A stretch of DNA of 64,000 nt, taken from Candidatus Zhuqueibacterota bacterium. Its GTDB lineage: Bacteria > Zhuqueibacterota > Zhuqueibacteria > Thermofontimicrobiales > Thermofontimicrobiaceae. The stretch spans positions 348-64,347 of the forward strand of contig JAPDQM010000004.1 of assembly GCA_034505795.1 (NCBI GenBank). The letters run 5' to 3'. The notes below the pieces were generated by a model. It was given only the letters and a program-made list of their open reading frames with translations. It had not been told where the DNA came from and made no database searches. The first letter of the stretch is position 1. Each line of letters starts with the position of its first letter. This document shows, in pieces, positions 14,809 through 45,290 of this stretch. A program made the position numbers and the translations under genes.

Positions 14809-15059
14809 GGAATCCTCCATTAAAATAGGCAAGATAGTTTAAAAGCAGAATAACGATGAGCGATTTGATTGTCGGTTGGTGCAATTTGAGTTAATCCAAT
14901 CATTGTTTAAAATAACAAATTGATTAAGGAATAACTACCTCTATGTCGGGAATGCTTCAGTTGCGATCAGGATTTTTGCAACAATTTAAAATAAAAATAT
15001 TAGCATGAAAGTCAAGAAAAAAATTTGGAAATTGTAAAATTCTTTTAAGCCATTTCATT

Positions 15060-24298: not shown

Positions 24299-24372
24299 GA
24301 GTTTGCTCCAATTAATTGGTTCAGTAGTTCAGTAAACTGAATTGTTGAGTTAAGTTGATTATGCGCCAGCCT

Positions 24373-24541: not shown

Positions 24542-24564
24542 AAAAAATGCAAAAGATCATCGGA

Positions 24565-27495: not shown

Positions 27496-28815
27496 TTACT
27501 TCATCAGAGTCATTGACTTCAGAATGGTCTGGCCGTCGACTTTCAGTCGATAGTAATAGGTTCCAGAAGCCAGTCCGGAAGCATCGAATCTGATTTCATG
27601 CTTGCCCTCAGTCATGGTTTCGCTGACCAGCGTTTTTACCTCTCGTCCCAGAATATCGTACACCTTCAGCTCGACATGGCCGGTTTTGGCCAAGGTGAAC
27701 GGAATGGTAGTGGTTGGATTGAACGGATTGGGGTAGTTTTGCAGCAGATTGTAATTGCGAACCACTTCGCCGTTTTCAACCAGGACAACACCAGTGTACG
27801 GATTGGCATTTTTCCATTTCTTTATCACGCCACCGTCGAAATCATTGGTGAGCGCGTACCAAACGCCGCCTTCTTCCCAGAAGCAAATGCCGCGCGGCGA
27901 GTAAAAAATATCGCCATCCGTTGATGCCCCTGCCACATATTTTCCGCCGCTCTTGCCAACACTGTCAACAATCGCCCAGCCTTTATTGGGATCCAACGCA
28001 TACCAACCGGTAAAATCGGATGCACCGACATCCCAGTAGGTTCCGACCCACATCATGCCCCAGGGATCCCAATCCAGACATTGACCCCACATCACCTTTT
28101 CGGGGGTGGTGCCAAAGGTATCTACCGGTGCATAGGTGCCATCAGGACCATCATCGCTATGCCAATGAACAACGCCATTTCGACCAGAGTAGATTTTGCC
28201 AAAATACACATCTTTGCCGTCCTTGCTCACCAGCAAGCTGCGCTGCAAGCCCAGATTGGTGTCGGCCACGAAAGAATAAAGCTGCATATCTTTGTCGAAA
28301 ATGTAGGCGGGATTGCCGCTCGCCACATGAGCGAGGTAGATGTAGCCATTCTCATCAGCGGCGCCCTCAGTCAGCGAAGCACCTGGTTTTGGTTTCACCT
28401 TGCCAGTAACCTCCGCGCTGAAATTGGCAGGATCGAGCGTCTGATAGTTGATCCGCCACATTTCATCATAGGCTGAATGCAGCACATTCCCCTCATTGTC
28501 GAGTGCAGTTCCGCGGCAGCCATTTACCAGTGTATCGACCTGGCCGCTGGCATGTTTCAAGAAGCGAACCTTCGCGTAGACAGTGCCATCTGGGTTATAA
28601 ACCCACATCGGCTTAATCGGGACCTTGGTAGTACCATCGGGTTTGACGAGTGTGTCGGTATAAGCGTAAGAGCCAACCCAAATCTTGCCATCGGCGGTTC
28701 TTACGATACCATGTGGCTGCGCTATTTTAGCAAAATCGCCGACATATTCCCATTGCGCCAGCCCTAAGCTGGAGAACATCAATAGTGCTACAACTGTGTA
28801 AAGAACTTTTTTCAT
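27496..28815 (-). CDS. Secreted protein of unknown function with canonical T9SS sorting domain
   Basis: Signal peptide MKKVLYTVVALLMFSSLGLAQ with GGAGG upstream. Beta-rich body with no motif I can name. C-terminus LLQNYPNPFNPTTTIPFTLA..VELKVYDILGREVKTLV..SGTYYYRL..MTLMK. Confidence 0.75.
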   Translation of the reverse strand: MKKVLYTVVALLMFSSLGLAQWEYVGDFAKIAQPHGIVRTADGKIWVGSYAYTDTLVKPDGTTKVPIKPMWVYNPDGTVYAKVRFLKHASGQVDTLVNGCRGTALDNEGNVLHSAYDEMWRINYQTLDPANFSAEVTGKVKPKPGASLTEGAADENGYIYLAHVASGNPAYIFDKDMQLYSFVADTNLGLQRSLLVSKDGKDVYFGKIYSGRNGVVHWHSDDGPDGTYAPVDTFGTTPEKVMWGQCLDWDPWGMMWVGTYWDVGASDFTGWYALDPNKGWAIVDSVGKSGGKYVAGASTDGDIFYSPRGICFWEEGGVWYALTNDFDGGVIKKWKNANPYTGVVLVENGEVVRNYNLLQNYPNPFNPTTTIPFTLAKTGHVELKVYDILGREVKTLVSETMTEGKHEIRFDASGLASGTYYYRLKVDGQTILKSMTLMK

Positions 28816-29138: not shown

Positions 29139-30335
29139 CTATGGTCGCCCATAGTAAGGCGCCCCTTCTTTGAGCATATTGATTTTGATCACTCGTCGCT
29201 TCTTGGCATCATCGCTACGCCGGGCGACATAGAGAAACTGCTTGCTGCCCCAGGTGAGCGAGTAACTGGTCGGCTCCAGCACACCAGGATAAAGTGGTGC
29301 AAATGTGCCATCAGGATGTATGACGACAACCGCCTCTGGCGCATCGGTGCCAACATACATATCGCCATCCGCAGCAAATGTAATCGATAATATTTCAAAC
29401 GTGCTGCTGATATGGGTGGTCCAATCAAAGAATAGTTCGGTAGGGCCCAATTCGTTTTCCGATAGGATCTGATTGCGCCAGATTGCCTGCTGATTGGTCG
29501 CATTAATCTTGCCGCCCACATAGACATAGCCGTTAAAGATACGGATGGCTTTGATGTAAGTATCCGGGTATGGTATAATGCCTTTGGAAGTTCCATCCCC
29601 CTGGATGGTAACTTTATAGAGGCTATCCCCTTTGCCGCCCACAAACAGAAAACCTCCCGGAGCAAAATCCAGGGCATACACCGCATCTTTCACCCGCACC
29701 CATTGAGCGGCAGCTCCACCGCCCGCAGGCACTCGATACAAGTAGCGTGTGTTTCGTGCGACATAAAGCATGCCATCCGGCCCAAATTCCATACCGGTAA
29801 AGAGCGAAAAAGTGGTCGTTCCATAATCGGTTTTCACCTCTGCCGGCGTGATTTTGACGATCTTGCGCGAGCCAAGGGCGACATACAGGTTTTCATCCTT
29901 ATCGCATTCAACCATATACGGCTCATCGAAATCACCAAAGCCGCCGAATTCTCCCACGCCTCGGACCAGGCGATAGCGCATCAAATTACTAAACGAAATC
30001 GCGCCCAACACCGACACCTTCACCGTGGTCGAATCAGCAACAAAGTTGGGGCTCTGAACGATCAATTGGTTCGGGGATGCTTCTAAAACCACGGCTTTCG
30101 TTTTCCCAAAATGCACAAAATTATTTTCTTTTATGGGCGAAAAGTTCTGGCCGATAATTTTGATCGTCACAATACCGGCCAAAGCGCTGTCGGCTGGCTC
30201 AATAGCGGTGATCACCGGATCTGGATTATAAACATAATTGGGATTGTAAAGGCTCTCCGGTTTCTCCTGCTGACAACCGCTGACCAACACTACCAGCCCT
30301 AGCAGAATCGCTGCAAATCCCTTCCATCTATTCAT
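29139..30335 (-). CDS. Lipoprotein with N-terminal IPT/TIG domain and C-terminal NHL/SMP-30-like beta-propeller
   Basis: Lipobox LVSGC in MNRWKGFAAILLGLVVLVSGCQQE. IPT-like ITAIEPADSALAGIVTIKIIGQNFSP..VHFGKTKAVVLEASPNQLIVQSP. Repeated blade-like segments (NLYVALGS, MLYVARNT, FLFVGGKG, YVYVGGK, DMYVGTD, FLYVARR). Paralog of 36028..37215. Confidence 0.8.
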   Translation of the reverse strand: MNRWKGFAAILLGLVVLVSGCQQEKPESLYNPNYVYNPDPVITAIEPADSALAGIVTIKIIGQNFSPIKENNFVHFGKTKAVVLEASPNQLIVQSPNFVADSTTVKVSVLGAISFSNLMRYRLVRGVGEFGGFGDFDEPYMVECDKDENLYVALGSRKIVKITPAEVKTDYGTTTFSLFTGMEFGPDGMLYVARNTRYLYRVPAGGGAAAQWVRVKDAVYALDFAPGGFLFVGGKGDSLYKVTIQGDGTSKGIIPYPDTYIKAIRIFNGYVYVGGKINATNQQAIWRNQILSENELGPTELFFDWTTHISSTFEILSITFAADGDMYVGTDAPEAVVVIHPDGTFAPLYPGVLEPTSYSLTWGSKQFLYVARRSDDAKKRRVIKINMLKEGAPYYGRP

Positions 30336-30461: not shown

Positions 30462-32591
30462 CTATCGAATGATCACAAACTTCCGAAATGTGCTGTCGCC
30501 TTTTTTGTACAATAGTTGATTCGTTTCGGGATCGTAGTAATCTTCGGTAACTTCAAAATGGGCGATGTAAACACCGCTGACCACCACCTGTCGGGAAGAG
30601 GTCACCGAGTTCCAGGTCTCGTCGCCGCTACCGTTGGTGTGTTCGATGGTCTTAATCAGATCGCCGCGCTCGGTAAAAATCCGAATTCGACAGCGAGCAG
30701 GAATATCAAGAAAAGTAATTTTATCCGGCTCGCCCAGATATTGCAGACTTCTGGCGCGGATACTAAACGGATTGGGGACGACCCGAATATCTTTCAACGC
30801 GACTCCAGCTTTCCGGCGCAAATAAGCAGGCTCGGTGGTTCGGGTGTAGAAGCGACCGCTATGCAGAACGCCCGTGGGATTTGCCTCTCCGGTGGTGTTA
30901 TTGCTGCCGTCGTTCACTGCCACCAGATAGTAGTAATAGGAAAAGCCACGAGCGGCCTGCGTATCATTGAATTGGGTGGTTCCGGGTGGCACCGATCCAA
31001 TTTTCTGATAGACAGTATCCGGACGACCAATGGCGCGATAGATTTCATACCCCGCAAAATCGGGTTGACCCTCGGACTCGCTGGGCGACCAACTGAGACT
31101 GATCCGATCACCACCAGATTCCACATTGAAGACTGCGGGCGGCAACGGCGCCTGCGGTATCTTATAATCCAGGTCGAAATTCCGCTTGGCACGGCCAAAC
31201 GTCAACAAGATGGAATCTTTTCCGGTGTAGAACCAGGTGTTTTTATAAACGTTCTTGTCGGTGGTGGTACTGCCATCGGGCAAGGTGTAAGGTGAGTTTT
31301 GCAGCAGCCAGTTACGGCCAATCAACTCGCACATGGGCCGACTTAAGCCGCTCACGCCCTCGGCTTCCACGATCCGCACGCTTTCACCGGGCTCCAGATC
31401 AAAGGGACCGTAGCAAAGCCAGACATTGGTTCCGCCACCATCATTATGGATGGTCACCGGATCGGGATTGGATGCCATGTAGACTTCATCCATGCGATTG
31501 GTGCCGCCCAGGCCTTTATATGGTTTCCCGCTGAGCATTTCATATAATTCGATCATGCGGGGTTCATCGGTTTTCTGGAGATTGCCCAAGCTGGGATAGG
31601 TATCGCCAGCATGCCAGCCCAGCACTGCCGGCTGATTGGGATCATCGCTCTTATCGGTAGCGCTCTTGTCCACATGCAAAATAGCAGTACCGGCAAACTG
31701 CGGCCCGGTTAACCGGCCGGGTGCGGTCAACATCGGTGCACCAATATTGTCATAACTGTTCATCGCCGACTGCCCTGCCCAACTGAAGCCACATCGAATC
31801 CATTCGACAATCGGATTGGCTTCGGTAATTTTCTCCCCCACGTGTTGGGCGTAGTCTTCCCCGCGCTTGGTCACCCAGGTATGCTTGCCCCAAACCTGCC
31901 CGTCGCCAATCCTCTCGCCACCTTCACGACAGACGCTATAGCGCTGCCCCCAGCCGATGCGAACCCCTTTCAACGCTCGATTAAGCTCGATTTCAGGATC
32001 ATAGTCGGTATTGCCGGTATTGGTAAACGTGTATTCACAGATGAAATAATTGTCGTGATACTGTTGACTGAAGAAAAGAATTCGCCGGGTCATAGTCAGA
32101 CCGATCTTGGTATTCACCACCATCATAATTTCGCGATCGGCAATCAGGGAGGGATCCACCTCATCCACGTCACCGGCGTAAGGTGCAGTCACATTGTTGC
32201 CATCCACCAGCACCACGGGCGGGGAAAATTTAGCGATTTGCTTGAGCTGCATCGGAAACAGCGAAACATCGACCGAACCCAGGGTAATCGTCAACCCAAA
32301 CACCTCCCAGGACTGGCCTTCGGTATCGATGAAATCTTTGGTGGCGATCCAGGCTCGTTTGATAACGGCGTTATCCTGTTTGAGGTAGTCCGCCGGCCAG
32401 ATCAATCCTTCGTAGTAGCTGTTATTCCAGGCGCGCTCACTGCCATACGCATTGAAGTGAGTTTGTAATGAACCGATGCGGACATAGCGCCGCTCGGTCC
32501 CAGCAACTTGCGCCGATGCACTGGATATAGCTATCGCTAGGATACCGACGACCAGCAGAGCAACTGTCAATTTATGCATATTTTTTTTCAT
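30462..32591 (-). CDS. Secreted partner protein of the upstream TBDT (709 aa): unassigned N-terminal region, FN3-like module, divergent T9SS-like C-terminal domain
   Basis: Signal peptide MKKNMHKLTVALLVVGILAIAISSASAQ. Family motifs YFICEYTFTNTGNTDYDPEIEL, HVDKSATDKSDDPNQP, GPFDLEPGESVRIVEAEGVSGL. FN3-like PPAVFNVESGGDRISLSWSPS..FAGYEIYRA..FSYYYYLVAV. C-terminus IRVVPNPFSIRA..ITFLDIPARCRIRIFTERGDLIKTIEHTNGSGDETWN..SGVYIAHF..KFVIIR. Confidence 0.85.
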   Translation of the reverse strand: MKKNMHKLTVALLVVGILAIAISSASAQVAGTERRYVRIGSLQTHFNAYGSERAWNNSYYEGLIWPADYLKQDNAVIKRAWIATKDFIDTEGQSWEVFGLTITLGSVDVSLFPMQLKQIAKFSPPVVLVDGNNVTAPYAGDVDEVDPSLIADREIMMVVNTKIGLTMTRRILFFSQQYHDNYFICEYTFTNTGNTDYDPEIELNRALKGVRIGWGQRYSVCREGGERIGDGQVWGKHTWVTKRGEDYAQHVGEKITEANPIVEWIRCGFSWAGQSAMNSYDNIGAPMLTAPGRLTGPQFAGTAILHVDKSATDKSDDPNQPAVLGWHAGDTYPSLGNLQKTDEPRMIELYEMLSGKPYKGLGGTNRMDEVYMASNPDPVTIHNDGGGTNVWLCYGPFDLEPGESVRIVEAEGVSGLSRPMCELIGRNWLLQNSPYTLPDGSTTTDKNVYKNTWFYTGKDSILLTFGRAKRNFDLDYKIPQAPLPPAVFNVESGGDRISLSWSPSESEGQPDFAGYEIYRAIGRPDTVYQKIGSVPPGTTQFNDTQAARGFSYYYYLVAVNDGSNNTTGEANPTGVLHSGRFYTRTTEPAYLRRKAGVALKDIRVVPNPFSIRARSLQYLGEPDKITFLDIPARCRIRIFTERGDLIKTIEHTNGSGDETWNSVTSSRQVVVSGVYIAHFEVTEDYYDPETNQLLYKKGDSTFRKFVIIR

Positions 32592-32715: not shown

Positions 32716-35700
32716 TTAGAAACTGATTTTCAAACCGAATTTAATATCTCGTGGATTTAAAAAGGTGAAATAGGTTAAATTCGGCATATCGATATAGGCT
32801 TTGGTATCCAGAATTCGCTTCAGATCCTCTTTGGTCTTGGTGGGATCGCTGGGGTCGTATGCTTCATATTTGACGCCCGGCTTGCGATAATCCCCGATGC
32901 GATCATGACCATGTTCCGAACCCGATTCCCATGAAAAATGCAACGATTCCATGTAATCCAGATAATCATAGTTATTGGCAAAACCGGCATAATTCAGGAA
33001 TTTCAAGTTGAAGACATTGGTGATGTCCAGATAGGCTTGCAGTTCGTAACGGGCCAATTTGAACGATTTGGTCAACCGCATGTCAAAATTGTAATTATCC
33101 CGCCAGCGCACGTTATCGACAACACCTGGAATATTGTGGGGATTGTAAGTTGCATAAGCGCCGGCACGCCAGCTTGCCAATAGATTGAGATACCAGTTGC
33201 CCAGCACATGCTGTCCCAGCCAGACCGGTCCAAAATCTGGTGGAGTATGGATGTCGAAATTGAATCGAGCATAGGGTTGCGGCCGGGGCTTTTCCTGATA
33301 AGGATTCTCCCGGATGTAGTTACGCTGCTTATTGGGATCTTCGTAATATCGCAGCAATCCAAAATAGCCCGACGTGCCTACGTCGTAGGTATAGTTAATG
33401 AACCCCGTCAGCCAGCGGCCCGTAGTTTTGGTCAGGGTCAGTTCAAAGCCGCGAATGTCTTCGTAGTTGTTGTTGGCGGCTTTGCTGTACTGCACCGAGG
33501 CATTGATATTTTCGTAATAGACCCAGCCGGGTTGGTTGGTAATGTCCTTGTAATAAGCCGCCAGATTCAACAAAAAGAGATCGAACAGGTTCTGAGCATA
33601 GCCCAACTCATAGGCTACCGTTTTCTCAAAAACCATGTTCGGATTGCCAATCGTGGTCACCAGACCATTGTATTCCCGCTGCAACCGGAAACGATAAGTT
33701 GACGAGGGTTCCTGGGTAAAATGGCCGTAGTTAAAATAAAGTTTGGAATTAATAGTGATGGGATGCGAAATGCCCAATCGCGGACTCAGATGCCAGGTGG
33801 GTTTCGCATCTTCGGTCGGAATGCTGACTTCGATGAGCTTGCCAAATCCCTCGCGAAAATATTTGTCATAGGCCGCCATCTGGTAGACCACACCGTTCGG
33901 ATCGGAATAATCCAATCGCAAACCCACGTTGGCAATGAAGCCTTCAAATTCCAGCTTGTCTTGCACATAGGCACCGACTCGATAGGGGAAGCGATGATAG
34001 ACCTGCTGCCGATTCCACGTCGTCATGCCAGGATTTTCGGTGTAAGATTTGATGTTGTAGTCATCATAAACAATCTCCACTCCCGCTTTCACCTGATTGA
34101 CATTATTGAGTTGGCTGGTGAAATTCGCCTGCAATTTGGTGGTAGCGATAACGCTTTTATCCCGCCCCAAATTCATCCAGCCACCCAGAATCATGCCATC
34201 AATGCCGGTGACACCATAGCCCCAATAGCCCCACGGTGCTTCGTCCGTAAAAATACCGGGAACGGGTTCATATTTCTTCGTGGTATCCCGCAGCGCCATC
34301 TGGTAGGTCTTGTAGCGGTTGATGTTGTGCTGCAAATTGATTTCATAAAACGTTTTGGCGCTCAACATGTGCGTCCATTTAAAACCTAACATCGTGCGAT
34401 AGATGTTGCTGGGGCTGTAATAACCGGGCATATAAAGAATGGCATCGCCGCTGCTGCTACTGATCAGGTCGGCTACCTCGCTGTTGTAGCGCAATACCCG
34501 GCCGGTGGGCGTGGTCGTCCAATCATAAGGCGACACAGAGAACACTTCGCTGTAAAGGCCGGTTACCAGCAGCTTAATCATCGGATTGATATCGGAGGTT
34601 AATTTTAGCTGCGTAGAATTGTCCAGATAGTTGTCTCGTGAAAGCGGGTAGATGAACATCTCCCGTTCCTGGAAATGGGACAACGTAAATCGCAAATCCC
34701 CCAGCGCCGGGCCAATCACCGGAATTGGGCCGCCGAAAATGCCATCGACCACATAGTCGGGTTTATTGATGTCTCCCCGACGTCGATGCTGCCACTCCCA
34801 CAGCTTCTTCGCTCCTTCCGGCGTCAGATCATTCTTAGGGTCATTATCCCGGATGGTAGCATCGGAAACCGCGATCCAGCCTTCAAAGATCGGATATTGT
34901 CGCTGCGTGTACGCATCCCAGGCACCGTTGGTGGTACCGGTCCAACAAACCGCCGGGTCCATGTACGGCCGGGTGAAATAGGTGTAGGGATCATAAATCG
35001 AAGGCCCAAAATTTTTCTTAGCGGGTGGCCGATATTGAATCGTCAGACCGCCATTATAGTGCCGGCGATCGCCTTCCCTGGTCACCACATTGACCACGCC
35101 CGACCGAATATTGCCATATTCGGCATTAAAGCCAGCAGTTTGAATTTTCATCTCCTGGATAGAATTCAAACTTAGCGCCGTAAAGGGGACATTGGAGCGC
35201 TCGTCATTCAGCGACAATCCGTCCACCATAAATGCCGTTTGTCGGGCGCCACCGCCACGAATGATAACCCCCTCGCTCCCCTGTTCAATTCCCGCCTGCA
35301 GGACCAGGACCTCATTCACCTGTTTCACAGGTAAGGTTTCGACTTTTTTAAAATCGATATTGATTTCACTGGCCGCCACATCTCTGGTTACCACGGGACG
35401 CTCGGCAACAACCACCACTTCGCTCATTTCCAATGCTTCTGGTTTCATTTTAAAACTTATGGTTGTTGTCAAATCAATTTTCACAATTACATTTTGCGTG
35501 GATACCGATGCATAACCCATCATCGTGGCCTTAAGCGTATACACACCTGGCGGCACGTTCAGTATCACATAATCACCTTTCAAATCCGTGGTGGCGCCAA
35601 CGCTGGTGCCTTCGACAAAAACATTTACCCCGGGCAGCGGTTGCCCGCTCTCCGCATCGCTAATATGACCAGCGATTTTACCAGTAATACCGGCGAAGGC

Positions 35701-35769
35701 CATGGGCACCAGAATCAATAGCGACAGGCTAATGAAAATGGATATCTTTTTCACGACATTCTTCTCCAT
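32716..35769 (-). CDS. TonB-dependent transporter with CarboxypepD_reg-like domain (long subfamily, ~1017 aa)
   Basis: Track ORF 32716..35814 trimmed to MEKNVVKKISIFISLSLLILVPMAFA (ATG 35767-35769; the start is less certain because there is no clear SD). ITGKIAGHISD..GVYTLKATMMGY. Plug motifs IIRGGGARQTAFMVDG..VNVVTREG. Conserved post-plug insert ..PYMDPAVCWTGTTNGAWDAYTQRQYP.. C-terminus ..KFGLKISF. Confidence 0.88.
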   Translation of the reverse strand: MEKNVVKKISIFISLSLLILVPMAFAGITGKIAGHISDAESGQPLPGVNVFVEGTSVGATTDLKGDYVILNVPPGVYTLKATMMGYASVSTQNVIVKIDLTTTISFKMKPEALEMSEVVVVAERPVVTRDVAASEINIDFKKVETLPVKQVNEVLVLQAGIEQGSEGVIIRGGGARQTAFMVDGLSLNDERSNVPFTALSLNSIQEMKIQTAGFNAEYGNIRSGVVNVVTREGDRRHYNGGLTIQYRPPAKKNFGPSIYDPYTYFTRPYMDPAVCWTGTTNGAWDAYTQRQYPIFEGWIAVSDATIRDNDPKNDLTPEGAKKLWEWQHRRRGDINKPDYVVDGIFGGPIPVIGPALGDLRFTLSHFQEREMFIYPLSRDNYLDNSTQLKLTSDINPMIKLLVTGLYSEVFSVSPYDWTTTPTGRVLRYNSEVADLISSSSGDAILYMPGYYSPSNIYRTMLGFKWTHMLSAKTFYEINLQHNINRYKTYQMALRDTTKKYEPVPGIFTDEAPWGYWGYGVTGIDGMILGGWMNLGRDKSVIATTKLQANFTSQLNNVNQVKAGVEIVYDDYNIKSYTENPGMTTWNRQQVYHRFPYRVGAYVQDKLEFEGFIANVGLRLDYSDPNGVVYQMAAYDKYFREGFGKLIEVSIPTEDAKPTWHLSPRLGISHPITINSKLYFNYGHFTQEPSSTYRFRLQREYNGLVTTIGNPNMVFEKTVAYELGYAQNLFDLFLLNLAAYYKDITNQPGWVYYENINASVQYSKAANNNYEDIRGFELTLTKTTGRWLTGFINYTYDVGTSGYFGLLRYYEDPNKQRNYIRENPYQEKPRPQPYARFNFDIHTPPDFGPVWLGQHVLGNWYLNLLASWRAGAYATYNPHNIPGVVDNVRWRDNYNFDMRLTKSFKLARYELQAYLDITNVFNLKFLNYAGFANNYDYLDYMESLHFSWESGSEHGHDRIGDYRKPGVKYEAYDPSDPTKTKEDLKRILDTKAYIDMPNLTYFTFLNPRDIKFGLKISF

Positions 35770-35983
35770 TTGTTTAAAATCATAATGGCCTGATTTACAC
35801 CAGACTCGAATCAATAATGTCTCTCCTCATTTTTTGGTCGCTTTATGGTAAGTAGGCTAATAAGATTGAGTCGCTAAATAGGTCACACAGTTGCACGATT
35901 CATCAGCCGGAACAAGCGTCAGCTTAAACGTGTCCAAACCGACAACCACGCGCAAAACGCAAATAGCACTTGGCACAGCGCTT

Positions 35984-36027: not shown

Positions 36028-37215
36028 TCAGGGCGCCCCATATTTTTGCATGAACAGCTTAATGATCCGCTTCTGGGTTGGGTCCAATTCATTGCGTCGA
36101 TTTACATAGAGATACTGTCCTGGTCCCCAGGCCATGGCATAACTGGATGGCGCGATGACACCAGGATACAACGGCTCAAAGCTGCCATCGGGATGCAATA
36201 TGATGATGGCCTCCGCTGCATTGGTACCAATGTAAAGATCCCCATCCGTTGAGAAGACCAGGGATTGGACTTCCGATACTGCGTCGACATTGGCACTCCA
36301 GTCAAAGTAAACTTCTCGCTCGCCCAACTGATCATCGGAGATAATCTGATTGCGCCAAACATATTGATGGTTAGCTGCCTTATCCACGCCACCGACATAA
36401 ACATAACCATTGAACACCTGAATGGCTTTGATGTAAATGGACGGATATGAGGCAACCGCTGCACCCGAGCCATCCGGTTTGATGCGGTAAAGATCGTTGT
36501 TATCGCCCCCGGCGTACATTACGCCGCTGGGTGCAAAATCAAAATCCCAAATTTTGCCAGGAGCATCGACCCATTTGGTCGCAGCACCGCCGCTGGCCAG
36601 GGGAATCCGATACAGGGCGGTTGTCAATCGAGACAGATACAAATAATTATCCGGGCCGACACGCATCGCCTGTGCTTTCAGGAAGCTCGTAGTCCCGAAA
36701 TCCTGGCGCACCCCATCCGGAGTGACCTTTTCGATCTTGCGGGTAGTAAGGGAGACGTAGAGGTTCTCGTTTTGGTCGCAAGCAATGCCATACACATCAT
36801 CGTATTGACCAAAACCAGCATACTCCCAGACCGCCTGTTTTAGTTTATAGCTCATGGTATTGCTGAATAAAAAGGCTCCCTGCGTAGCAATTTTGATGGT
36901 AATCGCCTCTGACGGCTTATTGGGACTCTTCAAAACCAGTTGCGTTTCCGAGGCTGAAACAATAGGAACCATATCCTTATTAAAAAATACCAGGTTCTCC
37001 TCGGCCACCGGCGAAAAATTGGTCCCAATAATTTTGATCTCACCAATGCCAGCAAGTGCGCTATCAGCCGGAATGATCTGTGCAATCGTCGGCGCTGGCT
37101 TACCTGTAACATTAGGGTCAAAAAGGCTGGGCGGATTATCGGCTTCGCAGCCAAGCAGCAACAGTATCGCAGCCATCATTGAAATGACAATTGCGGCGAA
37201 AAGTGTCTTTTTCAT
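36028..37215 (-). CDS. Lipoprotein with N-terminal IPT/TIG domain and C-terminal NHL/SMP-30-like beta-propeller
   Basis: Track ORF trimmed to MKKTLFAAIVISMMAAILLLLGC (ATG 37213-37215, AAGGAG upstream, lipobox LLGC). IPT-like IAQIIPADSALAGIGEIKIIGTNFSP..LVFFNKDMVPIVSASETQLVLKSP. Alignable by eye along its whole length with 29139..30335. Confidence 0.8.
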   Translation of the reverse strand: MKKTLFAAIVISMMAAILLLLGCEADNPPSLFDPNVTGKPAPTIAQIIPADSALAGIGEIKIIGTNFSPVAEENLVFFNKDMVPIVSASETQLVLKSPNKPSEAITIKIATQGAFLFSNTMSYKLKQAVWEYAGFGQYDDVYGIACDQNENLYVSLTTRKIEKVTPDGVRQDFGTTSFLKAQAMRVGPDNYLYLSRLTTALYRIPLASGGAATKWVDAPGKIWDFDFAPSGVMYAGGDNNDLYRIKPDGSGAAVASYPSIYIKAIQVFNGYVYVGGVDKAANHQYVWRNQIISDDQLGEREVYFDWSANVDAVSEVQSLVFSTDGDLYIGTNAAEAIIILHPDGSFEPLYPGVIAPSSYAMAWGPGQYLYVNRRNELDPTQKRIIKLFMQKYGAP

Positions 37216-37265
37216 TTGTTTCGCTCCTTTGCTATATTGAGGATTGAACATTCATCAATCGTTTC

Positions 37266-38291
37266 TTAAAGTGATAGTCGGAATGAAACCCGTTGCACAT
37301 TATCGAACACCCCAAACGGCGTATAAGCATAATCCAGTGCGATCATCCGATCGCCCAAAAATTTGGTTTGCACCCCGAAGCCCGCGGCAAAATCCTGTTC
37401 ATCCCGATTGAGCATGTAGCCAAACCGCAACGCCAGCATATTCATTAGTGTATATTCAGCACCGAAATTCAATTGCTCCGAATAATCTCGCGGGTGGATC
37501 GCATCGACGGAAATCAACAGGGAATGCATATTGGTCTTTTCCATGAGCACATCAAAAATATTCATGGAAATACCCATTTTGAAGGTCAATGGCAACTGGA
37601 ATCCTTCGGATTCGAACTTCACTTCCTGGGAGAAATTGCGCACGGTCATTCCGAACACCAGGCTTTTAAAACCGGTGCGGTAAATAGTTCCAAAATCGAT
37701 CGCGAACACGCTCAAGTCATTGCTCACTTCTTTCGTGCCCTCGGCAACCGTTTCGCCGATAGGAATGATGCTGTTGCCCAGTTTCTGGTTGACGTACCGA
37801 ATATGGCCGCCCACCGAGAACCGATCGGTCAGCGATTTGGCATAGCCCAGGCCGATGGCAAAAGCCGAAGGCTTGAATTCACCAGTATCGATATAGCCTT
37901 TGTCGCTGGTCGGATCCACTCGCGTGCCAATGAATTCTCCATAGTCAACCGAGATCAGACTCAGACCAAAGGTACCATATTTCCCATAGGTCGGGTTGAA
38001 AGCGATGCTGGCCGAGTAGTGGGTCATGTCCGCAATCCACTTGTTCTGATTCAGCGATAGGTCCATGAAGTTGTTCATCAGGGAGAGGTTAGCGGGATTG
38101 TGGAATAGCGACAAAGATCTTCCTTCAACGGTGGTAAAAGCTTCGCCCATAGCCGCAGCGCGTGCTTCAGTGGCTACGCTTAAAAATTGTAAACCTGTCT
38201 GCGCTAATTTTTTATTCGCAGAGTAGCTATTGCAAATAACCAGCCCGATGGTCAGGATGGCTAAGCCGAGTATGAAGATCGCTTTTTTCAT
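37266..38291 (-). CDS. PorV/PorQ-like outer-membrane beta-barrel protein
   Basis: Signal peptide, then KLAQTGLQFLSVATEARAAAMGEAFTTVEGRSLSLFHNPANLS. Beta-barrel pattern with terminal ..SFRLSL. GAGGAG upstream. Starts 39 nt after the partner-gene stop. Confidence 0.75.
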   Translation of the reverse strand: MKKAIFILGLAILTIGLVICNSYSANKKLAQTGLQFLSVATEARAAAMGEAFTTVEGRSLSLFHNPANLSLMNNFMDLSLNQNKWIADMTHYSASIAFNPTYGKYGTFGLSLISVDYGEFIGTRVDPTSDKGYIDTGEFKPSAFAIGLGYAKSLTDRFSVGGHIRYVNQKLGNSIIPIGETVAEGTKEVSNDLSVFAIDFGTIYRTGFKSLVFGMTVRNFSQEVKFESEGFQLPLTFKMGISMNIFDVLMEKTNMHSLLISVDAIHPRDYSEQLNFGAEYTLMNMLALRFGYMLNRDEQDFAAGFGVQTKFLGDRMIALDYAYTPFGVFDNVQRVSFRLSL

Positions 38292-38330: not shown

Positions 38331-40445
38331 TTAACGAATGATGATGAATTTCCGAATGGCATTATCGCCTTTTTTGAATAACAGTTCACCCGTATTCGCA
38401 TCGTAATAATCCTGCGTCACTTCAAAATAGGCGATATAGACACCGCTAACGACGACCTGCCGCGACGAGGTGATGGAGTTCCACTCGGCATCACCACTGC
38501 CATCCGTGTGTTCAATGGTATAGATGAGATCACCGCGTTCGGTAAATATTTTAATCGTGCAGTATGGCGGAATATCCAGGAACATGATACGATCCTGCCC
38601 GCTAATACCATATTGCAGGTCACGCGCTTTGATATTGTATGGATTCGGTACGACCCGAATGGCCTCTAAACTTTGCCCCGACTGTCGTTTCAGTTTAGCC
38701 GGATTGCTGGTGCGGGTATAGAACATGCTGCTCTGCAACGAGCCGCCCGGATTGGCTGGCGAATTGTTGTGCAGGCCATCATCAAAAGTCACAACATAGT
38801 AATAATAGTCGAAGCCACGCACGGCTGTTTTGTCTTCGAATCGGTTGACGACTTGCGGATGAGCAGTGCCGGCGCCACAGGCAAAGATTTCGTCATAGGT
38901 GGTGTCGGGCTTGTGGATCGCCCGGAAGAGTCGATAGCCAGCAAATCCCGGCCACGATTCAGCCGAATTAGACCAGGTGAGCACGATCCGATCGCCACCG
39001 GAATTGACGCGAAATTCATCAGGCGGTGGCGGTGGCAGCGGAATATTGTACTTCAATTTGTAATTCTCGATGGTACGCTGAAACATCTTTTTCAACGAAT
39101 CTCTGCCAGTTAGCACCCAGGCATTTTTATATTCGTCTTTGTTATTCGTCGTGCTGCCATTGGGCAGGCGGAAAGGCGGCTGCCCCTTCAGCCAACGAGC
39201 GCCAATAGTGTAACAGGAGTCCCGACAAAGGCCATCGATGCCTTCAGCAATCACGATGTGAATACTGTCGCCGGGAGCTAATGTGTAGGGGCCAAAACCC
39301 AAACAATGCGAAAAACCGCCGGGCGTACCACCCCAAACATCGGCAAAGCCATCACCCACGGCATCCGCATGCATCACGGGTGGATGGCCGGCGGTCATTG
39401 CCGCATACTCCTCAGCCATTTTAGCCGCATTAAATTGATCATTGGACGAGGTGATCGGCACATCGGAACCCAAAAATTGCGTTGTAGTCGGCTGATTGGG
39501 ATCATTCGACTTATCCTGGGCGGATTTATCAGCATGCAACACCAAATTGCCCGTAAATTGAGCGCCACCCAGGTGCCCATCGCCACCAGCCGAGCCATTG
39601 GGTCCACCGGTGCAATCAAACGTCGCTTTAGAATGTTTACCGGTCCAGGAAAATTCACTCAGATACGGCTGGCCAGTCTGTTGGTCATAGACCAGCATGG
39701 TATCGTTCATGGTGCAATGCCCCCAGGCCGCAGATTGTGGCAGATAATAGTAGCCATAGGGACCGGTTTCCCGCGCAGCGGTGTAGCGGTATTGAAAGAA
39801 GAACACCACATCCTGCAGGGTCTGGACATTCACCGTGCCCTTGTTATCAATAATGCCGGTGTTTTTAAAAACGTAATCATAAATGAAGTAGTTATTATGA
39901 AACTGTTGGCTGAAGGCATAGATCGTTCGATATTCCGTGATGCCAATACCGGTATTGACAACATTGTAAAGAATGCGATCAGTGACCGCATTGGGATCGA
40001 CTTCATCCACGGCATCCATGTAGTCCAAAAAACCAGCCGGCGTATCATCCACATAAACCCGGGGCCGTTCGAAACGACCGATCAATTTGAATTGCTGGGG
40101 CATGAATTCATTCTTTTCATCCCACACGCGGGGGCCGATATGGACGACTTTATAATCGAACGTTTTGCCAGCCAGGGGATCATTATAATTTTTGGCGCCA
40201 ATCCACAGCGCTTTGGCGGCCTTGCAATCCTGCCAGTTGAACTGCGCTGGCCAGCGCAGGCCATCCTGCTGGTCAGAAACCAAATGCCGGCGACCCACTT
40301 CGATTTCGCAGCCCATGCTGGAGTACCACTCGTGCAGCATGCCCACGGCCAGCCACTTGGTTTCATCACCCAAAACCATGGTAACACTGCTCAAACATAA
40401 TATCACAATGAGCGAGAGTCTGGTGAGAGAACGGTTTGCTTTCAT
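38331..40445 (-). CDS. Secreted partner protein of the upstream TBDT (704 aa): unassigned N-terminal region, FN3-like module, divergent T9SS-like C-terminal domain
   Basis: N-terminal signal-like segment MKANRSLTRLSLIVILCLSSVTMVLG. Family motifs WLAVGMLHEWYS, YFIYDYVFKNTGIIDNKG, HADKSAQDKSNDPNQP, GPYTLAPGDSIHIVIAEGIDGL. FN3-like PPPPDEFRVNSGGDRIVLTWSNS..FAGYRLFRA..FDYYYYVVTF. C-terminus IRVVPNPYNIKA..IMFLDIPPYCTIKIFTERGDLIYTIEHTDGSGDAEWN..SGVYIAYF..KFIIIR. Confidence 0.85.
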   Translation of the reverse strand: MKANRSLTRLSLIVILCLSSVTMVLGDETKWLAVGMLHEWYSSMGCEIEVGRRHLVSDQQDGLRWPAQFNWQDCKAAKALWIGAKNYNDPLAGKTFDYKVVHIGPRVWDEKNEFMPQQFKLIGRFERPRVYVDDTPAGFLDYMDAVDEVDPNAVTDRILYNVVNTGIGITEYRTIYAFSQQFHNNYFIYDYVFKNTGIIDNKGTVNVQTLQDVVFFFQYRYTAARETGPYGYYYLPQSAAWGHCTMNDTMLVYDQQTGQPYLSEFSWTGKHSKATFDCTGGPNGSAGGDGHLGGAQFTGNLVLHADKSAQDKSNDPNQPTTTQFLGSDVPITSSNDQFNAAKMAEEYAAMTAGHPPVMHADAVGDGFADVWGGTPGGFSHCLGFGPYTLAPGDSIHIVIAEGIDGLCRDSCYTIGARWLKGQPPFRLPNGSTTNNKDEYKNAWVLTGRDSLKKMFQRTIENYKLKYNIPLPPPPPDEFRVNSGGDRIVLTWSNSAESWPGFAGYRLFRAIHKPDTTYDEIFACGAGTAHPQVVNRFEDKTAVRGFDYYYYVVTFDDGLHNNSPANPGGSLQSSMFYTRTSNPAKLKRQSGQSLEAIRVVPNPYNIKARDLQYGISGQDRIMFLDIPPYCTIKIFTERGDLIYTIEHTDGSGDAEWNSITSSRQVVVSGVYIAYFEVTQDYYDANTGELLFKKGDNAIRKFIIIR

Positions 40446-40531: not shown

Positions 40532-43500
40532 CTAAAATTTATAATTGATCGTGATTCCCCAAAAGATGGTCCGCGGATTCAAAAATGTGAAATAGGTCTG
40601 GTTCGGCATATCGATATAGGCTTTGTCTTCAAGGATCTTATCGATACGCTTTTGTTCCACCTGACGCCAGTTATTATCCACGAACTCCATATACTTCTGG
40701 GTATTGGCATCATAATAGATGACTCTGGGATTGGGATTGGCAAATTGGGTATAATCGGCTACCCACTCCATTGGCACGTATTCGACGCCTGTTTTCCGGT
40801 AATCGCCCAATTGGTCATTGCCGGGAATATTTTCATATTTCAATTTATCAGCGATGTTTCGCGGCAGATGCAGCGATTTCAGGTAATAATTCCTATCAAA
40901 AGTATCGAAATAGGACAGCCGCGAGAAGTGCTTAAAGTTGAACACATTGAAAATGTCCATAAAGAATTTTACATCCAGGTCTTTGAAGACAAACGTCTTG
41001 GATAATTTTAGATCGATATTGTAATCGGATTTCCATTGGACGTTGTACTCGATGCCAGGGACATTGTTGGGATTCCAGGTATCCCATAAACCGGCAGTCC
41101 AGTTACCCAACAGATTCAAGTGCCAATCGCTCAGGATTTGTTGCCCCATAAATTCCGGGCCGATTTTGCTGGGAGTGTGAATATCGAAATAGGCTTTGAA
41201 GCGAGGCCGCGGTCGTGGCTTCGACTGCTTGGGATTTTTCAAGTCGAAATCCCGCTGCGCCGCAGGATCGTCATGAACTTCGCGCTTGCCAAAGTATCCT
41301 GAAGTTCCCACGCGATACTCATAATTCAAATTGCCAGTGAACCAGCGCCCTGTACTCTTGGTCAGGTCGAATTCAAAGCCACGAATGTCCTCGTAGCTGT
41401 TGTTGGTCAATTTATAATAGTCGAAATTTTTGATATCGCTGATAATCCGAATCCAATATTCCTGATCGGAAATATCTTTATAGTAAGCGGACAGATGCAG
41501 CAAATAATCCGACATAATGGCCTGGTCATAACCCAACTCGTAGGAGACCGTTTTCGCCAATGGGATCGTGGGATCTCCGAAGTATTCCATCTTTTCGGTC
41601 AGGTTGCGCTGATTGCGATAATAGCGTTCCGAGGTCGGCATCTGGCGATAGTGACCATAGTTGAAATAGAGTTTCGAGTTGTTGGTGATGGGATGCGAAA
41701 TTGCCAGACGCGGGCTGACCGTAAATCGCCCTTTGACGCTTTTGGTTTTGTACTGACTTTCATCCTCGGGACGGAATTTAAAGAAATTCCGATCGTACAT
41801 ATCGACATCGAACCACTTGCCATTGGGATTGCTATATTCCATAATCAATCCGAGCGAGGAGATGAAGCCACCCACCTCGATTTTATCCTGAATGTATAGC
41901 GAGCCTCGAAATGGATTTTGCTTAATATAGGTCCAGGTATTGCCTTCGGGCAGATATTTATTTACCTGACCGAATGCCATATCGAAGCGGTCGTGGATGA
42001 ATTCGATACCGCTTTTTAGCTGATTCCATGAATCGATCTGACTCACCAGGTCAGCGCGTGCGGTATAGGTCGAGATCTCGCTGTAGTCGCGAGACACACT
42101 GATCGGACCACCCATGATGAAGTTGCCATCGCCGGTTCCGAACACGGGTCCTTCCTCGAATCCAAATGGCCGTTCGTCGATTAAATAGCCCGGGAAAATC
42201 TCGTAGGTTTTGCTATAATCACGATAGCGCCCCGGCTCGGTGCGATAGATTTTTCCGCTACGCTTCAATTGAACTTCATAAAAAGTAGTGGGATTGATGA
42301 GATGGGTGAATTTGGCGGAAATGGTATTGTAAAATTGAGCCGTAGGCGAAAAATAGATGTTGGTATAAATTCGGGAGGGCGTGGTAAAGCTGCCCGTGAT
42401 CATCGTGGACGCCACATCCTCCGGTGTCTCCATATAGCTGGTGCCACCAGAGAAAGACGATGAGACGCCATATATCTCGCCATACAAGCCCATGACCGTT
42501 AGTTTCATTGCCTCGCTAATATCTGACGTAAGCTTAAGCATACCGCTCCGATTGGTCAGCGCCTTTCGCGACAGCTCAATCAGATACATATCCTGTTCTT
42601 GTCGTGCTGAGGCGAAAAAGCGGAGATTGCCCAGATATTTGCTAATGAACGGTACCGGGCCACCAAAGCCACCGTCCACATTATAATCCGGCTGGTCGAT
42701 ATCGCCTTGCTTCCGATGCTCCCATAAAAATAATCGCTGAGCCGCCTCGGGGGTAAGATCATTGTTGGGATCGTCATCCTGCAACGTTCGCTGCGACACT
42801 GTATTCCAACCATCGAATTTGGGATACTGGCGTTGCGTGTACAGGTCCCAATTCCCGTTCTGAGTACCGGTCCAGCAAACCGCGGGATCGAGATATGGCC
42901 GAAGCCAATAGGAATTTGGATCGTAGGGTGAAATGCCAAAATGCTTGGGTGCGGGCGGCCGATATTTCATGGTCATAGTCGCCGTGTAGCGATCGCTCAA
43001 CCCCTCTTTCGTAACCACATTCACCACGCCCGAACGTACATTCTGATACTCGGCGTTGAAGCCGCCGGTTTGCACCGAAACCTCTTGCACGGCACTCAGC
43101 GGAACAGAAGTAACGGGCTTGTTGTCTCGTTCGTCCCTCAAAACCACTCCATCGACCATGAACATCGCCTGGTCGGCACCGCTACCGCGAATACCCAGGC
43201 CTGATGTAATACCGGCCTGCAAACCCAGGGCTTCATTGACAGTGGTAACCGGCAACGTAGCGATTTGATCGGTGCTGATATTTTTTTTGCTGGCGGCCAC
43301 ATCTTTTTCCACTACGGGACGCTCAGCGACCACTGTAACCTCTTCACCGGCTAACACCTCGGCTTTCATTTTAAAATCGACGGTGGTGGTTTGGTCAATA
43401 TACACGCGGACATTGGTCATTGTCACTGCGGAGTAGCCCATCATGGTCGCCTTTAGCGTATATGTTCCAGGCGGCACATTCAAGATCACATAATTGCCAG

Positions 43501-43675
43501 AGATGCCAGCAGCCGCGCCCATCATCGTTCCTTCAATAACGATATTCACTCCGGGCAAGGGTTGACTGGTCTCTTCATCGATAACCACACCGGCAATTTT
43601 TCCGGTCACCCCTGCCAGGGCCGCGGTCGCAGCAATGACGATGATTGCAATGAGGAAAAGAAACAATCTCTTCAT
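40532..43675 (-). CDS. TonB-dependent transporter with CarboxypepD_reg-like domain (long subfamily, 1047 aa)
   Basis: Signal peptide MKRLFLFLIAIIVIAATAALA with GGAAGGGAG upstream. VTGKIAGVVID..GTYTLKATMMGY. Plug motifs GIRGSGADQAMFMVDG..VNVVTKEG. Conserved post-plug insert. C-terminus ..WGITINYKF. Confidence 0.9.
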   Translation of the reverse strand: MKRLFLFLIAIIVIAATAALAGVTGKIAGVVIDEETSQPLPGVNIVIEGTMMGAAAGISGNYVILNVPPGTYTLKATMMGYSAVTMTNVRVYIDQTTTVDFKMKAEVLAGEEVTVVAERPVVEKDVAASKKNISTDQIATLPVTTVNEALGLQAGITSGLGIRGSGADQAMFMVDGVVLRDERDNKPVTSVPLSAVQEVSVQTGGFNAEYQNVRSGVVNVVTKEGLSDRYTATMTMKYRPPAPKHFGISPYDPNSYWLRPYLDPAVCWTGTQNGNWDLYTQRQYPKFDGWNTVSQRTLQDDDPNNDLTPEAAQRLFLWEHRKQGDIDQPDYNVDGGFGGPVPFISKYLGNLRFFASARQEQDMYLIELSRKALTNRSGMLKLTSDISEAMKLTVMGLYGEIYGVSSSFSGGTSYMETPEDVASTMITGSFTTPSRIYTNIYFSPTAQFYNTISAKFTHLINPTTFYEVQLKRSGKIYRTEPGRYRDYSKTYEIFPGYLIDERPFGFEEGPVFGTGDGNFIMGGPISVSRDYSEISTYTARADLVSQIDSWNQLKSGIEFIHDRFDMAFGQVNKYLPEGNTWTYIKQNPFRGSLYIQDKIEVGGFISSLGLIMEYSNPNGKWFDVDMYDRNFFKFRPEDESQYKTKSVKGRFTVSPRLAISHPITNNSKLYFNYGHYRQMPTSERYYRNQRNLTEKMEYFGDPTIPLAKTVSYELGYDQAIMSDYLLHLSAYYKDISDQEYWIRIISDIKNFDYYKLTNNSYEDIRGFEFDLTKSTGRWFTGNLNYEYRVGTSGYFGKREVHDDPAAQRDFDLKNPKQSKPRPRPRFKAYFDIHTPSKIGPEFMGQQILSDWHLNLLGNWTAGLWDTWNPNNVPGIEYNVQWKSDYNIDLKLSKTFVFKDLDVKFFMDIFNVFNFKHFSRLSYFDTFDRNYYLKSLHLPRNIADKLKYENIPGNDQLGDYRKTGVEYVPMEWVADYTQFANPNPRVIYYDANTQKYMEFVDNNWRQVEQKRIDKILEDKAYIDMPNQTYFTFLNPRTIFWGITINYKF

Positions 43676-44240: not shown

Positions 44241-45290
44241 CTATAATGCGAAATGCACTGAAAACCGATGCACATCATTAAAGGCACCAAAGGGAGTATA
44301 GGCATAATCCAACGCCAGCAGATGATTGCGATAGCTTTGCTGGAAGCCGACCCCGGTGCAGAAACCGTATTCGTCGTTTGGAGCAGAATATCCCAGCCGA
44401 ATGGCAAAGGTCTTGAAAAAGAGGTATTCCAATCCAATGTTAACTTGCTCCTGATAATCCCGTGGATGCGTGGCATCGATACTCAGCAGCAGCGAATTGT
44501 TTTCTTTGCCCAAAACGGGATAAATATCCAGCAAATCCATCGCGACTCCAATACGGAAAATCAATGGCAACTGAAAGCCTTCATCCTCATAGGTCACTTC
44601 TTTTGAGAAGTTGCGGATGCACATGCCGATATTCAAACTCCGGAAGCCTGTGTTATAGAGTACTCCAAAGTCAAAGGCAAAAACAGAGGCCGAATAGCTT
44701 TTGCGGGTGTAGTTGCCATCCGCGGCGGCACCGCTCAGGCCGATGATGCTGCTGCCCATGTCCTGAACAACATATTTTATATTGCCACCCACCGAGAATT
44801 TGCTGGAGAGCGCTTTGGAGTATCCGATGCCAAATGCCATGGCGCTGGGACTGAAGTTACCGGTTTCGACATAACCTAATTCATTGGCGGGATCGTCATC
44901 ACGAATCGTGCCGATAAATGTACCATAATCCACCGAAATCGCCGTAAACCCAAAAACGCCGTAACGGCCATTGGCGGGACTGAAGGCTGCACTGCCATAT
45001 AAATATTGAATGTCCGCAATCCAGTCAATTCGGCCGAACGAAAAATCGGCAACGTTCGACATTTTGGCCATGCCAGAGGGATTGAAAAACATCGATGTGG
45101 AATAGCCTTCCACCGCGGTAATGGCGTCAGCCAGTCCGCTGATTCGAGCATCGGTGGTCACATTGAGAAACTTCATTCCAGTTTGTGCCAGTTTCTGCAA
45201 CTTTTGACCGAAGCCTGCAGGAGCCAGCCAGCACAAAAGCAGCCAGCCCAGCACGATTGATTGCATATATTTTTTCATAGGTCCATCCAT
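44241..45290 (-). CDS. PorV/PorQ-like outer-membrane beta-barrel protein
   Basis: Signal peptide (the start could instead be the ATG at 45278, MKKYMQSIVLGWLLL). KLAQTGMKFLNVTTDARISGLADAITAVEGYSTSMFFNPSGMA. C-terminus ..FSVHFAL. Starts 22 nt after the partner-gene stop. Close paralog of 37266..38291. Confidence 0.75.
   Translation of the reverse strand: MDGPMKKYMQSIVLGWLLLCWLAPAGFGQKLQKLAQTGMKFLNVTTDARISGLADAITAVEGYSTSMFFNPSGMAKMSNVADFSFGRIDWIADIQYLYGSAAFSPANGRYGVFGFTAISVDYGTFIGTIRDDDPANELGYVETGNFSPSAMAFGIGYSKALSSKFSVGGNIKYVVQDMGSSIIGLSGAAADGNYTRKSYSASVFAFDFGVLYNTGFRSLNIGMCIRNFSKEVTYEDEGFQLPLIFRIGVAMDLLDIYPVLGKENNSLLLSIDATHPRDYQEQVNIGLEYLFFKTFAIRLGYSAPNDEYGFCTGVGFQQSYRNHLLALDYAYTPFGAFNDVHRFSVHFAL

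Follow-up and report, generated by a model that had tools for sequence, protein, structure and literature searches.

A 64,000-nucleotide stretch of DNA from a Candidatus Zhuqueibacterota bacterium (contig JAPDQM010000004.1, positions 348 to 64,347; hereafter, the window) encodes three β-barrel proteins that carry the N-terminal motif of two type IX secretion system (T9SS) proteins, PorV and PorQ, and the gene of each barrel lies within a cassette headed by a gene for a TonB-dependent transporter (TBDT). The question raised by this locus is what such barrels serve: the protein encoded immediately upstream (hereafter, the partner), the transporter, or a compound that passes through the barrel itself. 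A first-pass annotation of the window, which had recognized the PorV/PorQ-type motif in the three open reading frames (ORFs; 37266..38291, 44241..45290, and 8825..9817), proposed that each could serve its neighboring partner as a locus-specific carrier or anchor or, alternatively, be a FadL-like channel. As described below, the three ORFs encode PorV/PorQ-family barrels forming a large clade of their own, and the C-terminal tail of the partner is homologous to the type-A C-terminal domains (CTDs) of T9SS cargo proteins, yet belongs to a distinct class. On the analogy with characterized CTD–barrel pairs, we consider it moderately probable that each barrel acts as a dedicated T9SS partner and anchor of the upstream-encoded protein, holding it beside the TBDT.

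Five TBDT–partner pairs (cassettes A–E) are present in the window, and all cassette genes are on the minus strand. In each of cassettes A, B, and D, the gene for a divergent TBDT of 965–1047 residues with CarboxypepD_reg and Plug domains is followed by that for a partner of 665–704 residues and then by that for a barrel, the gap between the barrel gene and its upstream gene being 22 nucleotides in A, 39 in B, and 93 in D. Both the spacing of 22–93 nucleotides and the embedding of the barrels in transporter cassettes are thus as annotated in the first pass. Beyond that annotation, we found the TBDT–partner pairs of cassettes C and E, two lipoproteins with IPT/TIG and β-propeller regions, and a wide conservation of the arrangement in other genomes.

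The barrels of cassettes B (37266..38291; 341 residues), A (44241..45290; 349 residues), and D (8825..9817; 330 residues) share the N-terminal PorV/PorQ-type motif (e.g., QTGLQFLSVATEARAAAMGEAFTTVEGRSLSLFHNPANL), the barrel of cassette A having NPSG at the position of NPA(G/N). The NCBIfam model NF033709 (PorV/PorQ family; cutoff, 90 bits) matched all three from end to end (model positions 1–326), with scores of 201.4 (B), 192.8 (A), and 215.7 bits (D), and the Pfam model PF19572 (cutoff, 27 bits) was passed by two of them (32.6 and 38.1 bits), the third remaining below (20.7 bits). None reached the equivalog models of PorV (NF033710; cutoff, 250 bits; B, 86.2; A, 74.7; D, 89.1 bits), PorQ (NF033711; cutoff, 220 bits; B, 91.7; A, 82.5; D, 101.2 bits), or PorV2 (NF052325; cutoff, 325 bits; B, 33.1; A, 34.9; D, 61.1 bits). 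The PorP/SprF model PF11751 gave no match in the three window barrels at E ≤ 0.1; in some close homologs of the barrels, a precomputed match to PF11751 stands together with that to PF19572. When a profile made of 64 members of the barrel family was compared with the PDB, PorV was the sole significant match (E = 3e-17), TodX and BamG being marginal (BamG, E = 0.067). Among 1.84 billion cluster representatives searched with a barrel profile, 18,237 matched at E ≤ 1e-3, 8,348 of them at E ≤ 1e-10 and 1,167 at E ≤ 1e-30.

The AlphaFold2 model of barrel B (pLDDT, 84.4) consists of a non-strand hatch (residues 24–75) followed by about 14 long strands. In the Foldseek search with this model, the top two matches were the PorV chains of translocon structures (8gl6_F and 6h3i_F; TM-score, 0.68–0.69), with lower scores for FadL, TodX, and TbuX (0.50–0.58) and for BamG (0.49). 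The hidden Markov model (HMM) and structure searches thus agree on the family recognized in the first pass, and a non-PorV family is not indicated by either. PorV (LptO), whose N-terminal and NPA motifs are common to the cassette barrels, is the closest relative in both sequence and solved structure. In contrast to PorV, however, the cassette barrels score only 75–89 bits against the equivalog cutoff of 250, are shorter by 20–70 residues with short loops, and are locus-specific, whereas PorV is a single-copy housekeeping protein. They are PorQ-sized (330–349 residues) and score slightly higher on the PorQ HMM than on the PorV HMM.

The superfamily fold, the hatch, and the conserved NPA motif located in it are also those of FadL and TodX, so that the barrels could instead be FadL-type lateral-gate channels for the uptake, or the expulsion into the membrane, of a hydrophobic or amphipathic compound tied to the substrate of the transporter, a role unrelated to the CTD of the partner. 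Besides the TM-scores of FadL, TodX, and TbuX, a weak match to the Toluene_X family (PF03349; gathering score, 29.7 bits) in the N-terminal 75 residues of barrel D (18.7 bits; E = 6.7e-4) is in line with such a channel; the match is, however, below the gathering score and absent from barrels A and B, and FadL and TodX are farther than PorV from the cassette barrels by every measure used. We return to this alternative below, with the evidence from the partners.

The partners have signal peptidase I (SPI)-type signals and are not lipoproteins. Partners A (45313..47388; 691 residues), B (38331..40445; 704 residues), C (30462..32591; 709 residues), and D (9911..11908; 665 residues) belong to no Pfam or NCBIfam family except for weak matches of their tails, and none has a Pfam match to SusD; the N-terminal domain (N-domain) found nothing in Pfam, NCBIfam, or a sequence search of the PDB, and homologs of the partners bear only the public names 'fibronectin' or 'hypothetical'. 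The domain arrangement was delineated for partner B by its AlphaFold2 model (pLDDT, 90.6; pTM, 0.85): a β-sandwich region (residues ~28–470), an FN3 domain (477–555), and a CTD of seven to eight strands (597–702), which is encoded by nucleotides ~38334–38663. PorZ (PDB ID: 5m11) is among the fold matches of this model. Partner A likewise comprises an SPI-type signal, an N-terminal β-sandwich, an FN3 domain, and the partner-type CTD. The family HMMs recognized both the CTD and the N-domain in partner A (125 and 516 bits, respectively) and in partner D (78.5 and 152.5 bits), a divergent member with 28% identity to partner B. Carbohydrate binding was considered for the N-domain of partner B, for which Foldseek returned the β-sandwich N-domains of GH94, GH116, and GH65 enzymes, but the TM-scores of only 0.23–0.27 are too weak for this assignment.

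The tail of the partners (~110 residues) aligned with the window's own type-A CTDs in hhalign at a probability of 93.9% (E = 1.5e-7); the 76 aligned columns reach the last residue, with the motifs PNP(Y/F)N, IKIF/Y, W, SG(I/V)Y, and K..(I/V)(K/R) in register. The partners therefore end in a sorting-domain-like module, as had been noticed in the first pass, although they lie below the thresholds of the standard type-A models: TIGR04183 (cutoff, 23 bits) matched partner A only, with 16.8 bits, and PF18962 matched none of the partners. As for type-B CTDs, CHU_C (PF13585; cutoff, 27 bits) gave 18.5 bits in partner B only, and TIGR04131 gave no match. The best curated match of the tails is the CTD of PorZ (partner A, E = 2.8e-6; partner D, E = 2e-5). 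Conversely, an HMM built from the partner tails matched every partner but not one of the window's five standard type-A cargos, of which three pass PF18962, one passes TIGR04183, and the fifth, an Amidase_3 protein, is below PF18962 with 20.4 bits. Of the partner's modules, the CTD is conserved best, with a mean pairwise identity of 0.65 versus 0.57 for the N-domain; between partners B and C, the identity is 72% over the CTD as against 36% over the N-domain.

A tail homologous to type-A CTDs, combined with a barrel whose closest structure is PorV, a known shuttle (PMC5562754), could also mean that the cassette barrel is a specialized PorV acting in transit: PorU would cleave the CTD, the partner would be attached to lipopolysaccharide or released, and the barrel would not be a lasting anchor. 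The double cassettes described below, in which one barrel may serve two partners, would suit such a catalytic carrier. It is unexpected, however, for a disposable signal to be the best-conserved module of the protein and to form a class of its own, and the best curated match of the tail is the CTD of PorZ, which is retained; the PorQ-like size and short loops of the barrels also argue against a transient role. We regard the transient shuttle as unlikely.

The association between the tail and the barrel was surveyed in other genomes, in which at least 1296 partner homologs were detected; at least 574 confirmed partner loci are found among GTDB species genomes, and 80 of the loci (L001–L080) were fetched for the analysis of synteny. 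The labeled sources are KSB1, Calditrichota, Marinimicrobia, Melioribacteraceae/Ignavibacteriales, WOR-3, Delongbacteria, and Fidelibacterota. Over the 80 fetched loci, the order of TBDT, partner, barrel, and TIG lipoprotein is nearly invariant, and a second TBDT–partner pair is frequently located 3' of the first cassette. A barrel gene lies within 1.3 kb downstream of 81 of the 90 genes encoding a partner-type CTD (79 counted by script and two that had been dropped by the overlap filter), a TBDT gene lies upstream of 98 of 102 such genes, and a gene encoding a partner-type CTD lies upstream of every barrel in the fetched loci (79/79). Chance placement of a housekeeping PorV or PorQ, a candidate of negligible probability, is refuted by the three copies in 64 kb, the shortfall against the equivalog models, and the recurrence of the same order in ~80 loci.

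In five loci of Calditrichota (L017, L019, L023, L035, and L047), the partner-type CTD is carried by passengers that have no match to the partner N-domain, and a barrel gene follows each of them. The association of tail and barrel is hence independent of the passenger, and provides the strongest argument for the barrel serving the tail. Because the loci had been gathered through the partner, the retrieval was also run starting from the barrel. A Calditrichia homolog of the barrel was found in a cassette of the same kind (L081/L082). Of five divergent barrel representatives, all three with readable upstream sequence on the same strand (L085–L087) directly follow a gene encoding a partner-type CTD (E = 5e-27 to 1.5e-17); the neighbor of a fourth (L084) is divergently oriented, and the fifth is without upstream DNA. 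Divergent barrels are matched by divergent CTDs. A FadL-type channel would leave unexplained both the existence of a distinct and highly conserved class of CTD and the presence of a barrel gene after this CTD on unrelated passengers. Together with the closer relation of the barrels to PorV, this linkage weakens the channel alternative of the first-pass annotation, which we now judge to be quite unlikely.

How a barrel would serve the tail can be envisaged from characterized systems. The extracellular loops of PorV bind type-A CTDs (PMC10994853); PorZ keeps its CTD and is seated on PorQ (PMC10202324); and type-B cargos need a PorP/SprF-like barrel whose gene lies directly downstream of theirs, and they remain bound to this barrel, which acts as both shuttle and anchor (PMC9143113, PMC12618676). 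By analogy, the partner would be exported by Sec and would then pass through the outer membrane via the T9SS translocon by means of its divergent type-A-like CTD. The cassette barrel would take over the partner by binding the CTD at its extracellular face and would probably keep it, as PorQ does with PorZ and SprF with SprB, so that the CTD would not be handed to the PorU sortase. The outcome would be a non-covalently anchored surface protein with β-sandwich and FN3 domains beside the TBDT of the same operon. We thus infer for the partner a dependence on T9SS, binding and retention of its CTD by the barrel, and a role at the transporter. A lasting interaction is consistent with the conserved tail, with the PorQ-like size of the barrel, and with the conservation of loops L1, L4, and L7, which are predicted to be extracellular (mean identity, 0.72–0.90 versus 0.54 in the strands) and whose positions were assumed from standard barrel topology.

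The PorQ–PorZ pair of Porphyromonas gingivalis resembles the proposed arrangement in that a barrel of the PorV/PorQ family holds a surface protein by an uncleaved type-A-like CTD, as is predicted here; the cassette barrels are of PorQ size and score slightly better on PorQ than on PorV, and the PorZ CTD is the best curated match of their partner tails. They differ from PorQ, which serves the secretion machine, in their scores (82–101 bits against a cutoff of 220) and in being multi-copy members of TBDT operons, and the partner is unrelated to PorZ beyond its tail. The SprB–SprF and PG1035–PorP pairs share with the cassettes a cargo gene that directly precedes the gene for its dedicated FadL-like barrel, the occurrence of several pairs per genome, and the existence of orphans (PMC12618676, PMC9143113). 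Unlike these type-B pairs, the cassettes have a tail related to type A and barrels of the PorV/PorQ rather than PorP/SprF type, are tied to TonB-dependent transporters where SprF pairs are tied to adhesins, and occur mainly in KSB1, Calditrichota, Marinimicrobia, WOR-3, and Melioribacteraceae, with no named genus of Bacteroidia among their loci.

Several observations weigh against a dedicated anchor. Since the barrels are below the PorV and PorQ equivalog cutoffs, function can be transferred from PorV and PorQ by analogy only, and the loop conservation depends on the assumed topology. As had been noted in the first pass, no T9SS core gene is seen in the window, where none of the ORFs of at least 200 residues has a Pfam match to a T9SS core family. 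About 10% of the partner genes are without a barrel gene of their own, including that of cassette C and those of L043, L060, and L072, and in L084 (832-1995, on a 2.6-kb contig), a 387-residue barrel of the same clade with an N-terminal extension has no partner gene upstream. Moreover, the barrel, the CTD protein, and the TBDT occur together nearly always, and synteny therefore cannot separate a barrel serving the CTD from one serving the transporter. Neither is the CTD singled out by co-divergence. In a mirror-tree analysis of 73 complete cassettes (the window and L001–L080), in which the distance matrix of the barrel was compared with those of the CTD, N-domain, FN3 domain, and TBDT, the barrel correlated with all modules (r = 0.67–0.76), more closely with the TBDT (r = 0.76) than with the CTD (r = 0.69; partial r = 0.19). 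The proposal of a locus-specific carrier or anchor is strongly supported by the synteny (the 81 of 90 genes, the unrelated passengers, and the barrel-first retrieval) and by the known precedents, and not by the mirror-tree comparison. Partners without a barrel, such as partner C with a tail very close to that of partner B, probably share a neighboring barrel, as 'orphan' type-B cargos do in F. johnsoniae.

The close tracking of the TBDT by the barrel would be in accord with a FadL-type channel, and likewise with a T9SS-independent structural subunit that is docked sideways on the TBDT, as BamG is on BamA, the partner being exported by another route. BamG is a FadL-like barrel having exactly such a role (PMC12578637), and in the BamG–BamH pair, as is predicted for the cassettes, a FadL-like 14-stranded barrel statically holds a surface protein near a larger barrel. 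Yet the cassette barrels belong to the PorV/PorQ family, and their similarity to BamG is marginal by both the profile E-value and the TM-score given above; a T9SS CTD is not known on BamH, whereas the partner has a recognizable T9SS-type CTD and an SPI-type signal and is not a lipoprotein, with no other export route apparent. A purely structural subunit of this kind therefore seems very unlikely to us. The dedicated anchor, for its part, would also be placed next to the transporter. The highest correlation of all pairs was observed between the partner N-domain and the TBDT (r = 0.90; others, 0.67–0.77), which is consistent with a role of the partner at the transporter; it could reflect contact, or merely the better distance estimates obtained for long sequences.

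At the transporter, the partner would most likely capture or present the substrate together with the TIG/β-propeller lipoprotein, in the functional place of SusD, RagB, or BtuG of Bacteroidia. The cassettes resemble SusCD, RagAB, BtuBG, and the 'utilisomes' in having first a TBDT of ~1000 residues with an N-terminal CarboxypepD_reg domain and then surface accessories that include a β-propeller lipoprotein. They differ in that the TBDT is not of the SusC/RagA type (TBDT B, 50.1 bits on TIGR04056 against a cutoff of 368, in its N-terminal part only), in that the partner is a β-rich SPI protein with a T9SS-type tail, whereas SusD is a TPR lipoprotein, and in that the operon contains an additional, putatively anchoring barrel. 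In its strongest form, the proposal would be that the cassette encodes a T9SS-assembled, SusD-independent utilisome composed of a divergent TBDT, a β-sandwich 'lid' or capture protein, a PorQ-like barrel docked at the TBDT that would keep this protein permanently, and a propeller lipoprotein, a tentative extension about which we are rather doubtful. The same doubt applies to its covering much of the FCB group outside Bacteroidia (KSB1, Calditrichota, Marinimicrobia, Ignavibacteria-type lineages, and WOR-3).

The remaining cassette genes of the window, all assigned with Pfam unless otherwise stated, are as follows. Cassette A begins with a TBDT of 1017 residues (47561..50614) having N-terminal CarboxypepD_reg and Plug domains. 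In cassette B, the TBDT (40532..43675; 1047 residues) heads the partner and barrel genes, and 14 nucleotides past the barrel gene lies the gene of the IPT/TIG and β-propeller lipoprotein (36028..37251; 407 residues; lipobox LLLGC), which has propeller-type matches in the PDB and whose gene is conserved in fourth position in most of the related loci. Cassette C consists of a TBDT (32716..35814; 1032 residues), partner C without a barrel of its own, and a second TIG/β-propeller lipoprotein (29139..30335; 398 residues; lipobox LVSGC). On the 3' side of the latter gene is that of a 439-residue protein whose T9SS CTD is of the standard type A (27496..28815; PF18962, 42.3 bits); in 28 of the 82 related loci, a homolog is likewise encoded 3' of the TIG gene, so that this protein may also belong to the cassette. 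The TBDT of cassette D (11935..14832; 965 residues) contains TonB_dep_Rec_b-barrel, Plug, and CarboxypepD_reg domains, and downstream of the barrel gene of this cassette lies that of an 894-residue protein (6038..8722) with an FG-GAP/BNR/sortilin propeller and a standard type-A CTD (29.3 bits on TIGR04183, which passes the cutoff of 23). Cassette E comprises a TBDT of 951 residues (2821..5676) and a protein of ~926 residues (1..2778), which belongs to no Pfam family and whose last few residues are cut by the window edge; its partner-type CTD was detected by the CTD HMM at residues 851–939 of the 940-codon frame (52.2 bits). As this partner is truncated there, any barrel of cassette E would be located outside the window.

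In a promoter and terminator scan, the total numbers of sites were at the level of chance, and only the positions of the best sites are suggestive. The best sigma-70-like −35/−10 matches between 32 and 51.5 kb, at 50954-50926 (12/12) and 43910-43882 (11/12) on the minus strand, are both intergenic and lie just 5' of the genes of TBDTs A and B, a placement that fits one operon per cassette.

Some related loci show variations of the cassette. A small lipoprotein (190–340 residues) with a Cys residue right past the signal is encoded between the partner and the barrel in many of them (L007, 11114-11695; L013, 11133-11699; L040, 11080-12096; L018, 11009-11728; L034, 5565-6578); it is poorly conserved in sequence and absent from the cassettes of the window. 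The orphan partners of L043 (9001-11082), L060 (9001-11121), and L072 (8980-11100), the latter two from one metagenome-assembled genome, have neither a TBDT nor a barrel nearby, and their neighbors are unrelated (GDSL lipase, encapsulin, PfkB kinase, and metallophosphoesterase). In L001 (CAZYNP010000002.1, 170852-190963), cassettes A, B, and C are found in the same order as in the window, with a partner identity of 95%. This public contig of a metagenome-assembled genome is labeled 'uncultured Cytophagia bacterium', but the nearest named relatives of the partner and the barrel are from KSB1 and Candidatus Oleimicrobiaceae (Zhuqueibacterota), and the label is probably unreliable.

The genes around the cassettes give hints as to the substrate. 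A series of genes for type-A cargos of T9SS on the minus strand (15149-27279, with standard type-A CTDs encoded by 15149-18265 and 24565-27279) encodes GHL10 plus Big_5, Amidase_3 plus Big_5, and Golvesin_C proteins, as well as a PD40 protein and a PQQ-propeller/metallophosphoesterase protein. In the Calditrichia locus L081 (12390-19134), the cassette is followed by genes for a 435-residue CTD protein, GHL10, and a GH20 hexosaminidase. The GHL10, Amidase_3, and GH20 neighbors hint at amino-sugar or cell-wall polymers as the substrate. Toward the right end of the window, feoB and the gene of a DtxR-type repressor with a FeoA domain (51531-54255, plus strand) are followed by a housekeeping cluster with rpoA, rpsD, map, adk, and secY (54904-60904, minus strand); since the cassettes adjoin this ribosomal-protein region, they are located in the core chromosome.

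A single cargo with its own PorV-family barrel is already known, but only from PorQ–PorZ, the pair of the secretion machine itself, and from the type-B adhesins of Bacteroidota. In a survey of the literature on T9SS, PorV/PorQ/PorP, TonB-dependent transport, and the phylum names, whose coverage mostly leaves out subscription journals, no description of the cassette was found. What appears to be new is the combination of a CTD subclass, a barrel clade, and their fixed integration into a TBDT operon with a β-propeller lipoprotein, in several mostly uncultured phyla of the FCB group. Caldithrix abyssi (L047) is a cultured carrier, and the loci of Melioribacteraceae suggest Melioribacter roseus as a candidate for another; cultured carriers such as C. 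abyssi make the model testable. The lineages that carry the cassette are abundant in the environment; most of them are uncultured, and how they take up substrates is poorly understood. If the barrels are indeed dedicated anchors, a function would be given to thousands of genes now labeled 'PorV/PorQ family protein', 'fibronectin', or 'hypothetical', and a way of placing a non-lipoprotein accessory at the cell surface beside a transporter would be revealed; the loci would also offer natural sets of cognate and non-cognate CTD–barrel pairs for the specificity of T9SS cargo. Should the strongest form of the proposal hold, the assembly of nutrient transporters would be a major function of T9SS in these phyla.

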